From IMG/VR virus record IMGVR_UViG_2667527777_000009: DNA of 16,079 bases; one strand, written 5' to 3'. The translations under genes and the position numbers were made by a program. The stretch comes from a virus. Its lineage: Duplodnaviria; Heunggongvirae; Uroviricota; Caudoviricetes. Positions 13,823-14,618 of the stretch are shown here, piece after piece (within the stretch, counting starts at the first letter, position 1; every line of letters starts with the position of its first letter). Under the pieces are notes generated by a model. The model searched no databases. It saw only the letters and a program-made list of their open reading frames with translations, and had not been told where the DNA came from.

Positions 13823-14070
13823 CTCACTGAGATTAAAGCAAAGCGCAAAATTGCGCTGGCTACATCCCTCACATCTGAGGACTGTTAACCAGCAGGCCGG
13901 AATATATTCAGAAACTACGAAATTTTCGCAGTTTAATTACTCGTCAGCTTAATCGCTAACCCGCTCTGATATTTTCGGAAACCTCAATTTGAGGAAGTCG
14001 GCGAGGTAACTGTTTGATATTCCCGATAGCGCAAAAATGCGCGGTCGGGCAGAATGACCACCACCTCAAT

Positions 14071-14110
14071 CGTGACGGAGAGTGACAACCAGTGACACAC
14101 CGTGACAAAA
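14071..14110. repeat. Four tandem 10-bp units each beginning GTGAC (GTGACggaga GTGACaacca GTGACacacc GTGACaaaaa)
   Basis: Exact 10-bp phasing seen directly; followed by inverted repeat ACGGTT-t-AACCGT (14111-14123). Confidence 0.6.
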
Positions 14111-14160
14111 AGACGGTTTAACCGTTCATTAAAAATCGACGTGATTTTGTGCTTTCCGGA

Positions 14161-14183
14161 TGACGTGGCCAACGTCATTTTTT
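14161..14183 (+). terminator. Candidate intrinsic terminator (TGACGT-ggcca-ACGTCA + T6)
   Basis: 6-bp stem, 5-nt loop, TTTTTT at 14178-14183. Confidence 0.4.
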
Positions 14184-14618
14184 AGCGAAAAATTCTGATT
14201 AAGGTCACTGGCTGAACGGTCATAATGACCACGCAGACCATCGAGGCAACCATAGCGATCATCGTTACGGTTGGAGCTTTTCCGCCATTGGTGGAAAAGG
14301 TGCACATCTGGATCATCATTACGGTGATCAAGGGTATGTAAAACCCACCAGCCTGATTAAAGGTTAACCGGAAAAAAAATCCGGTAGCCCCGTTATGGGG
14401 ATCCCCATATCGACATTAACGCCCCTCATGAATTGGTGCGCTTCCCCCTGGAAAGATTACCCGCCTGTATATTTCTTGTGTCTATTTGTTCCACGTTGTT
14501 TCATACAGTGCACCGAACGGTGTAGTTAATGGTGTAGTCAATTTGCGATTTTTGGCACTTTTTCAATGAAAATTGTTTGATCGAATCAATGACTTGATGT
14601 AGTGGTAAAAGGACATAT

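Follow-up and report, generated by a model that had tools for sequence, protein, structure and literature searches.

The window analysed here, a 16,079-base stretch of a caudoviral record (IMG/VR IMGVR_UViG_2667527777_000009), consists of an element of about 14.6 kb followed by an intact chromosomal phoQ gene on the minus strand (14619-16079), the insertion lying in the roxA-phoQ interval. The element opens with int (1-1230), whose product matches Pfam families PF00589 (Phage_integrase, E = 1e-16), PF13356 (Arm-DNA-bind_3, E = 2e-17) and PF22022, and with the adjoining gene of a 62-residue AlpA-type excisionase/regulator (1605-1793; Phage_AlpA, E = 5e-18). These are followed by a D5-type primase and an HK97-type module in the order capsid, protease, portal, connectors, HNH endonuclease, P27-family small terminase subunit (TerS) and large terminase subunit (TerL); two annotated relatives, L001 and L089, have a matching layout, and, like the element, no phage-tail or lysis genes. 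An integrase, a regulator, replication genes and HK97 capsid/terminase genes including HNH, all within 10-15 kb, are the mark of a satellite of the phage-inducible chromosomal island (PICI) type; therefore, to judge from its genes alone, the element is a capsid-forming PICI-like satellite, similar to the EcCIEDL933 family (Alqurainy et al., bioRxiv 10.1101/2022.09.08.507074). Our subject is the right end of this element, some 790 bp between its last gene, here called ORF93, and phoQ. We propose, with a probability of about 0.7, that this region is two things joined at about 14412/14413: on the right, the attR site of a P4-type tyrosine integrase, and on the left, a tail that is not part of att and may have a terminator or insulator role (Table 1).

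The border with the chromosome is given by unoccupied sites. Positions 13800-14700 were compared with 5,426 complete E. coli genomes; phoQ was found in 5,423 of them, almost all of which match only from 14611, and only 37 carry at least 80% of the query. Genomes with an empty site align from 14611 at 100% identity. Since E. coli genomes match only rightwards of this position, 13830-14610 is element DNA. A first-pass annotation, made from the letters of the window, had placed the insertion just 3' of phoQ, and the empty sites bear this out; it had also stated that its reading would fall if 13830-14618 proved to be conserved chromosomal sequence in strains without the element, but 13830-14610 is missing from about 99% of E. 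coli genomes, in which the match begins at 14611.

The left junction, attL, is outside the window; for it we used a relative whose integrase (Int) is 95% identical. In L001, whose Int shows this degree of identity, exactly GGACATATTT is common to attL and attR, and this shared block, together with the empty sites, defines the core, which the first-pass annotation had thought could not be fixed without the left junction. The core overlaps by 2 nt the complement of the phoQ stop codon (14619-14621); attR had been correctly assigned to the right end of the element, but the right edge proposed for it, 14618, cuts through the core. The unoccupied site of K-12 carries GGGCATATTT (roxA-phoQ spacer ...GTATGGGCATATTTATTCATC...), and other strains have exact GGACATATTT; strain 2014C-3097, with an element whose Int is 95% identical, has ...GTATGGACATATTTTATCAATT... 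at attL and ...ATAAAAGGACATATTTATTCATC... at attR. When both element sides of L001 are joined, attP contains GATAAAA-GGACATA-TTTTATC, i.e., perfect 7-bp inverted repeats around a 7-bp spacer. GATAAAA and TTTTATC are probably classical core-type sites flanking the overlap region GGACATA, and the attP junction is predicted to read ...GATAAAAGGACATATTTTATC... The site fixes the exact insertion point of the family, one base past the phoQ stop codon, and the insertion replaces the native 3' flank of phoQ.

Elements inserted at tqsA keep both arms and have a different core (ATAACAGCA) and a 91%-identical Int. L089 (E. coli G6/7; 14853-15030 and 330-345), a sister capsid-forming PICI with near-identical arms and this same core, splits tqsA. 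About half of the differences between its Int and that of the window fall within the first 60 residues, and the two elements make a natural pair for the study of integrase target change.

To the left of the core, the sequence from 14413 to 14610 is common only to elements with a 91-95% identical Int, and is found in 882 of the 5,426 genomes. It holds a pair of GGTGTAGT repeats; elements at phoQ and at tqsA have such a pair in each of their two arms, and L001 has an exact copy of the 21-nt sequence CGGTGTAGTTAATGGTGTAGT in its attL arm, about 26 bp upstream of int. The first-pass annotation had noticed the same pair and carried it to 14542; the repeat in fact ends at 14538. Elements with other integrases have repeats of their own: L043, with a different integrase, has GTGTATTGC at a 12-bp period, twice at attR and three times upstream of int, and vB_KppS-Ant, a packaged, induced Klebsiella relative with another integrase type, has a 12-bp-period pair, TGTATAAACA, at the equivalent two places. 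Across integrase types, the repeats keep their 12-bp period and their place directly upstream of int. The main argument for taking the GGTGTAGT pairs as Int arm-type sites is that the repeat sequence co-varies with the integrase type at fixed places. The IHF consensus beside the core is retained in L001, L003, L004 and L005 despite substitutions.

The mechanism suggested by these sites is that the N-terminal domain of Int would bind the GGTGTAGT pairs in both arms, IHF would bend the arm at AATCAATGACTTG, and strand exchange across the 7 bp of GGACATA would be carried out by the core-binding and catalytic domains of Int, bound to the inverted GATAAAA/TTTTATC sites. The att site thereby supplies testable candidate sites for Int, IHF and AlpA.

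The candidate AlpA sites are the phased TTGTT repeats of the arm, TTGTTCCACGTTGTT, of which the first-pass annotation had correctly noted that it is a second copy; the other exact copy in the window is at 6992-7006. At up to three mismatches, TTGTTCCACGTTGTT has eight matches in the window against 0.58 expected, and TTGTT-N5-TTGTT has six against 0.10 expected, all within three arrays. Besides the array in attR, one sits between int and alpA, and another just past a terminator, about 170 bp upstream of the capsid gene; this mid-element array recurs in five relatives (L001, L020, L023, L028 and L039). The attL arm of L001 has a related three-unit phased TTGTT array just upstream of int. AlpA, encoded beside int, may bind these 10-bp-phased TTGTT(C) arrays, and, because the arrays also adjoin int/alpA and the capsid operon, such binding would couple excision to late-gene expression. 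One factor for both excision and late transcription would fit the placement of the repeats, and AlpA is annotated as such; a motif found in both att arms, beside alpA and ahead of the capsid operon suggests a single coupling factor. We found no description of AlpA sites of PICIs in the literature.

The left limit of the arm was set by comparison with relatives at phoQ, tqsA and yejO and with 74 viral contigs retrieved through one conserved motif. All compared elements share sequence up to CGTTATGGGGATCCCCATATCG, after which there are at least five unrelated continuations. What lies to the left of this point is a set of cassettes ('TAAC..TTGAT..' blocks with variable palindromes, a cassette with four GTGAC units, and a near-invariant block with a Chi site). 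These cassettes recur in PICIs inserted at tqsA or yejO or within the terminase gene of a lambdoid prophage, and several of these elements have unrelated arms and integrases. Together with ORF93, the tail is also found in classical PICIs in which two lambda-type cosN sites flank an rpp-like gene. In a set of 45 unique variants, cassettes have been gained and lost, so that ORF93 and the invariant block are 165 to 731 bp apart; this interval never includes an intact open reading frame (ORF). As PICIs with unrelated att arms also have this tail, the motifs of 13823-14412 are not att sites, and this sequence appears to be a modular non-coding tail placed between the last gene and whichever att arm follows, in E. 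coli PICIs of several kinds. L043 is a 13.5-kb IMG/VR contig with a PICI inside a lambda-like terminase/late gene (the helper-embedded type); it carries the same Chi block and hairpin units as the window, but its integrase and arm repeats are different.

The first-pass annotation had regarded the whole 790 bp as one large attR, with the GTGAC array, the hairpins and the inverted repeats as arm-type or accessory sites. These motifs are real, phased and non-random, and they are situated between the last gene and the core, as this proposal has it. However, they are 200-790 bp away from the core, the same cassettes accompany unrelated arms and integrases, the presence or absence of a cassette is independent of arm type, the GTGAC cassette of L006 is at a different location, and the packaged relative vB_KppS-Ant has none of the tail motifs. 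We therefore consider a single large attR very unlikely. The earlier interpretation is partly supported: it is right for the insertion point and the last ~200 bases, where GGTGTAGT and TTGTTCCACGTTGTT lie in the Int-specific arm and recur (TTGTT as a related array) upstream of int in a relative, and it does not hold for the motifs of the first ~590 bases, namely the GTGAC units, ACGGTT/AACCGT, the AGCGCA hairpins and the terminator, all of them at least 200 bp from the core and shared across arm types.

Table 1. Sequence features of the right end of the element and related features elsewhere in the window.
Feature	Position	Strand	Remarks
TTGTT(C) arrays, 3-5 units, 10-bp period	1278-1322	-	besides the attR array
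TTGTT(C) arrays, 3-5 units, 10-bp period	6982-7010	+	besides the attR array
ORF93, last gene of the element	13541-13822	+	93 aa; stop codon TAA (13820-13822) opens the first hairpin unit
Hairpin unit a: TAACTCACTGAGATTAAAGCAA + palindrome AGCGCAAAATTGCGCT	13820-13857 (palindrome 13842-13857)		terminator-like on - strand
Hairpins CCTCACATCTGAGG and AAACTACGAAATTTTCGCAGTTT	13867-13880; 13912-13934		read in sequence and fold; conserved in L001, L003, L004
Hairpin unit b: TAACCCGCTCTGATATTTTCGGAAA + palindrome CCTCAATTTGAGG	13957-13994 (palindrome 13982-13994)		alignment
Hairpin unit c: palindrome AGCGCAAAAATGCGCG	14007-14043 (palindrome 14028-14043)		reverse complement of 14007-14019, TATCAAACAGTTA, is an IHF consensus
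Array of four GTGAC	14072-14106		copies at 14072, 14082, 14092, 14102; exact 10-bp period
Inverted repeat ACGGTT/AACCGT, ACGGTTTAACCGT, then CTTTTTG	14108-14125 (repeat 14113-14125)	-	leftward terminator-like
Hairpin ATGACGT-GGCCA-ACGTCAT + T run	14160-14183 (hairpin 14160-14178)	+	candidate terminator
Palindrome cGGTCATAATGACCa	14217-14231		degenerate second copy 14046-14060; deletion/recombination joint among variants
Hairpin TGGAGCTTTTCCGCCA / TGGTGGAAAAGGTGCA	14272-14304		fold; variants with altered stem bases
Near-invariant block GTAAAACCCACCAGCCTGATTAA	14338-14360		holds - strand Chi GCTGGTGG at 14345-14352
Hairpin ACCGGA-A8-TCCGGT	14367-14385 (in stretch 14367-14412)		inverted-repeat pair
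22-bp palindrome CGTTATGGGGATCCCCATATCG centred on GATC	14391-14412		last stretch common to all arm types
Integrase-specific arm of attR ('P arm' of attP)	14413-14610	+	comparison with relatives
Phased TTGTT repeats TTGTTCCACGTTGTT, candidate AlpA sites	14486-14500	+	attR arm
GGTGTAGT-N4-GGTGTAGT, candidate Int arm-type sites	14519-14526; 14531-14538	+	only exact copies in the window
IHF consensus AATCAATGACTTG	14584-14596	+	exact match to WATCARNNNNTTR; 15 bp left of core
Putative left core-type site GGTAAAA (relatives: GATAAAA)	14604-14610	+	symmetry
att core (identity block) GGACATATTT	14611-14620		empty sites; attL and attR of a relative
Predicted 7-bp overlap GGACATA	14611-14617		symmetry of reconstructed attP

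As the first-pass annotation had stated, no long ORF and no tRNA are found at the right end of the element: 13830-14618 has no ORF of more than 64 aa, and ARAGORN finds neither tRNA nor tmRNA there. Rfam 15 covariance models have no match to the region at the gathering score or at E<=10. Compared with shuffled sequence, 13815-14065 folds with z-scores of -4.4 to -5.0 on both strands, and 14060-14420 with -4.5 on the plus and -1.7 on the minus strand. The two similar hairpins with AGCGCA that had been noticed earlier, AGCGCAAAATTGCGCT and AGCGCAAAAATGCGCG, are indeed present, and lie within a longer direct repeat at a spacing of 186-187 bp. They belong to units in which a conserved part, 'TAAC-N3-YTGR'/'YTGAT', the reverse complement of the IHF consensus, is followed by a short palindrome. 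A perfect stem of at least 5 bp stands at a fixed offset in 59 of the 69 unique units, against 7.6 in shuffles, and about ten different stem sequences are used. Of the three units in the window, only one has the exact IHF consensus. Unit b shows no variation in six aligned relatives at three att sites and is present in 32 viral contigs; in the window, a 2-nt insertion disrupts the IHF-like consensus seen in relatives.

The tail might have no function at all, being recombination debris of a cargo hotspot, composed of gene fragments, duplicated 3' ends and exchange scars. Its mosaic presence and absence, the range of its length, deletion joints at short repeats such as AATGACCAC, a repeated '..CGGCGGTAAC' that copies the 3' end of ORF93, some 50 nt of a hairpin unit shared with Rha-like coding sequence (RLPQIEVFGKINNLGL) in phage contigs, and the 2.3-kb cargo gene that vB_KppS-Ant has in place of a tail are all in line with such an origin. 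But the palindromes, unlike debris, are held at a fixed offset though their sequences differ, the Chi 17-mer and the 165-bp GTGAC cassette are near-invariant where neighbouring sequence is only 84-91% identical, and tail sequence is present in 856 of the 5,426 genomes. We regard debris as a possibility worth keeping in mind, if a doubtful one.

The Rha-like regulator gene of phage contigs L034 and L035 contains within its coding sequence a hairpin unit (...TTGAT...CCTCAATTTGAGGAAGTCGG; window 13957-13999), and the similarity stops exactly at the domain junction. A Rha-like pseudogene was rejected as an account of the tail, since one segment of about 17 aa matches and nothing wider does. In L043, an open minus-strand frame runs through three tandem hairpin units, and the motif P..(V)FE.IN.LG is repeated in it. 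The unit may be a piece of a gene or a module for recombination.

The four GTGAC units, reported earlier as phased, keep an exact 10-bp period, and GTGAC-N5-GTGAC has three consecutive exact matches, where 0.76 would be expected even with one mismatch allowed. The array opens a cassette of about 165 bp kept in 16 unique variants, including PICIs with other arms and PICIs of the Rpp type with lambda cosN. The inverted repeat ACGGTT/AACCGT and the candidate terminator of the first-pass annotation, a stem with a T run, both lie within this stretch as described; the latter is the sole terminator-like site on the plus strand between the last gene and att, and its T run, which ends at 14183, is conserved in 16 of 16 cassette variants.

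Our best guess, which we hold only weakly, is that the tail is a terminator or insulator region that possibly encodes RNA. Rightward transcription of the packaging operon would end at 14160-14183, and leftward read-in from the chromosome would stop at 14125-14108 and 13857-13842, so that termination both ways would shield element and flanking gene from one another. The other hairpins of the tail may be RNA-stabilising or recombination-prone structures. Termination or insulation is the minimal function at this position, because vB_KppS-Ant has there, between its ORF93-like gene and attP, only a canonical terminator.

Several observations weigh against this two-part reading of the right end. The plus-strand terminator is weak (7 bp, with 3 G-C pairs) and is absent from L003 and L004, variants without the GTGAC cassette. 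Two independent substitutions in the 14160-14178 stem, in L042 and L075, give G.U on the minus strand and a C.A mismatch on the plus strand. Insulation does not account for why the Chi block is nearly invariant, nor for the phased GTGAC array or the conserved 'TAAC..TTGAT' linkers. On the att side, the core and the second arm come from relatives with 91-95% identical Int; GGTGTAGT might instead be bound by AlpA and TTGTT by Int, or TTGTT might be the site of some other regulator. Finally, compared with L001, L003 and L058, the window is 5 bp shorter between the IHF consensus and the core (14596-14610), and with this deletion and GGTAAAA in place of GATAAAA, the copy may not excise normally. 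The 5-bp deletion shifts the phasing by half a helical turn. The stem substitutions at 14160-14178 hint at a role in a leftward transcript, though the T run suits a rightward terminator.

This leads to the question of whether the tail encodes one or more small non-coding RNAs, or is a structured 3' untranslated region of the packaging operon. An example would be a leftward RNA of about 110 nt running from near the palindrome at 14217-14231 to the ACGGTTAAACCGT-CTTTTTG terminator. There is a promoter-like TTTACA-16-AATGAT on the minus strand at 14342-14315, short variants show TTTACC-17-CATTAT (read by eye, not scanned), and a minus-strand terminator-like site is at 14125-14113; the substitutions just mentioned keep pairing on that strand only, and predicted local folding is strong, with stems that vary in sequence and still pair. 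On the other hand, promoter-like and terminator-like sites are not more numerous than in shuffled sequence, Rfam gives no match even at its relaxed threshold, 14060-14420 folds better on the plus strand than on the minus strand, and the palindromes, with centres of 1-4 nt, are equally suited to DNA dyads. We consider either RNA reading rather unlikely.

It is highly improbable that the region encodes, on one of its strands, a small hydrophobic peptide such as a type I toxin. A minus-strand ORF of 49 aa (14182-14331; ...TVTMIAMVASMVCVVIMTV...), in which substitutions in relatives keep the frame hydrophobic, and a plus-strand ORF of 38 aa (14225-14341) are candidates. However, L045 and L050 have stops in the minus frame, the frame changes from variant to variant, the conserved block is read in three different frames, no Shine-Dalgarno sequence is seen in the window, some variants have lost start codons, and the longest open stretches have no starts.

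Of packaging sites, the sequence GGTTACGGCGGTAAC (13810-13824) is faintly like the lambda cosN flank GGTTACGGGGCGGCGACCT; EcCICFT073 has two cos sites (PMC6092414), and the motif is duplicated in the window. A cos or pac site in the tail is nevertheless extremely improbable: cosN GGGCGGCGACCT occurs in the window only at two mismatches, which is chance level; the classical PICIs that share the tail carry their two cosN sites elsewhere, around the rpp-like gene upstream of ORF93; and the ends of the vB_KppS-Ant record fall in the gap between HNH and terS, at about 11475 of the window, as HNH/P27-type terminases predict. We predict that the cohesive-end site of the element is likewise at about 11475, in the HNH-terS gap (~11466-11490). 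The right end of the 16.5-kb vB_KppS-Ant record (...GGGGTGGGGGAGGTTTTCAGGAC) aligns to window positions 11449-11474. A replication origin in the tail was rejected by argument, since L001, with a RepA helicase in place of a D5-type primase, has a tail that is 96% identical.

The Chi site of the near-invariant block is one of many. The element has 13 copies of GCTGGTGG (885-14352), against 0.51 expected by chance, and the phoQ flank has none; in L001 (3236-18805), the density is 1.09 per kb inside the element and 0.14 per kb in the flanks. Among 34 distinct PICI bodies, the mean is 1.02 Chi per kb, with 228 sites on the plus and 159 on the minus strand, about 4-5 times the density of the K-12 chromosome (1 per 4.6 kb) and twice that of the Chi-rich phage LLS (1 per 1.86 kb; PMC12315714). 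In an independent sample of contigs collected via a different motif, 26 of 32 have the exact 17-mer of the Chi block, and in two of the other six, Chi is destroyed by a 2-nt change. In the literature search, no paper connected Chi with PICIs. The only minus-strand Chi between the predicted cos (~11475) and attR is the one in the invariant block.

It is conceivable, though unlikely, that the Chi, IHF and GTGAC parts jointly make the tail a dedicated cis module, which would let a satellite without genes for recombination or against RecBCD use host RecBCD and IHF for the formation of concatemers and the survival of linear DNA. The invariant block would supply the one correctly oriented Chi for RecBCD entering at the terS-proximal cos end, and the arrays of IHF sites and hairpins and the phased GTGAC array would be control elements at the DNA or RNA level. 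Whatever the role of the tail, a density of about one Chi per kb in PICIs would mean that the 'no Rec module, high Chi' rule of lambdoid phages applies to satellites too.

ORF93 is the final gene ahead of the non-coding tail in 45 unique PICI variants of several PICI types. It belongs to PHROG 1561 (unknown function) and has no Pfam match; it has 965 homologues, and all among the 120 matches listed are 'hypothetical'. Its AlphaFold2 model, three helices with a pLDDT of 69, is uninformative. When distant relatives were sought in one genome per species, only a near-copy from Shigella flexneri was among the results; S. flexneri SFBU1023, which matches the window at 98-99.6% identity across 11-16 kb, is the nearest sequence found beyond the E. 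coli set. Deposited phage genomes, searched in a distant mode, show no similarity to 13541-14480. In vB_KppS-Ant, the last gene before attP encodes a 62-aa relative of ORF93 with a shared C-terminal motif, W[KR]KPER.

The major capsid gene of the window (7222-8379) has an in-frame stop at 8047-8049, where L001 has Trp; the two proteins are otherwise about 98% identical. If this is not an error of sequencing, this copy of the satellite may be unable to form capsids, and the stop together with the 5-bp deletion in attR may indicate that the copy is decaying.

Five motifs of the element used as text strings had no match in the papers searched, and the string of the att junction and phoQ 3' flank was met only in two unrelated papers; in the PICI literature, we found no description of a non-coding tail or of att arms. 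The att site has close counterparts. As in attP and attR of the lambda type, there is a short core shared with attB, a 7-bp spacer between 7-bp inverted repeats, in both arms, at 70-150 bp from the core, direct repeats that do not resemble it, an IHF consensus by the core, phased repeats suited to a recombination directionality factor, and int beside one arm. It differs from these in that Int is P4-like (Arm-DNA-bind_3) and the directionality factor is of the AlpA type, in that both arms carry a TTGTT array as well as a GGTGTAGT pair, and in that candidate AlpA sites are found at two promoter-proximal places too.

With the capsid-forming PICIs (bioRxiv 10.1101/2022.09.08.507074), the element shares gene order, the lack of phage-tail and lysis genes in ~14.6 kb and a dedicated chromosomal site, but the copy studied here has the premature stop in its capsid gene. 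With classical Rpp/cos PICIs such as EcCICFT073 (PMC6092414, PMC6739421), it shares the tail and ORF93, but no lambda cosN is present in the window. Like the Chi-rich lambdoid phages (Zheng et al. 2025, PMC12315714; also Bobay et al. 2013, as cited there), the element is without evident Rec/Gam; those, however, are phages and these satellites, and the orientation of Chi in PICIs is only moderately biased.

The hairpin units of the tail invite comparison with repeats of the chromosome itself. The bacterial interspersed mosaic elements (BIMEs) of the RIP/RIB type in E. coli reportedly combine palindromic units with an IHF site. In the tail, too, there are tandem units, of about 50-57 bp, each with a match to WATCARNNNNTTR, a putative IHF site, and a short palindrome, at the non-coding end of an operon. 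Here, however, the palindromes are only 5-10 bp long and come in about ten unrelated sequences, with no consensus of repetitive extragenic palindromes by eye, and the units are specific to PICIs and some phage genes. A modular, hairpin-dense tail common to E. coli PICIs across integrases and packaging strategies could be of interest to those who study satellites. Set beside all these systems, the att site is ordinary, and the tail is an undescribed conserved feature.

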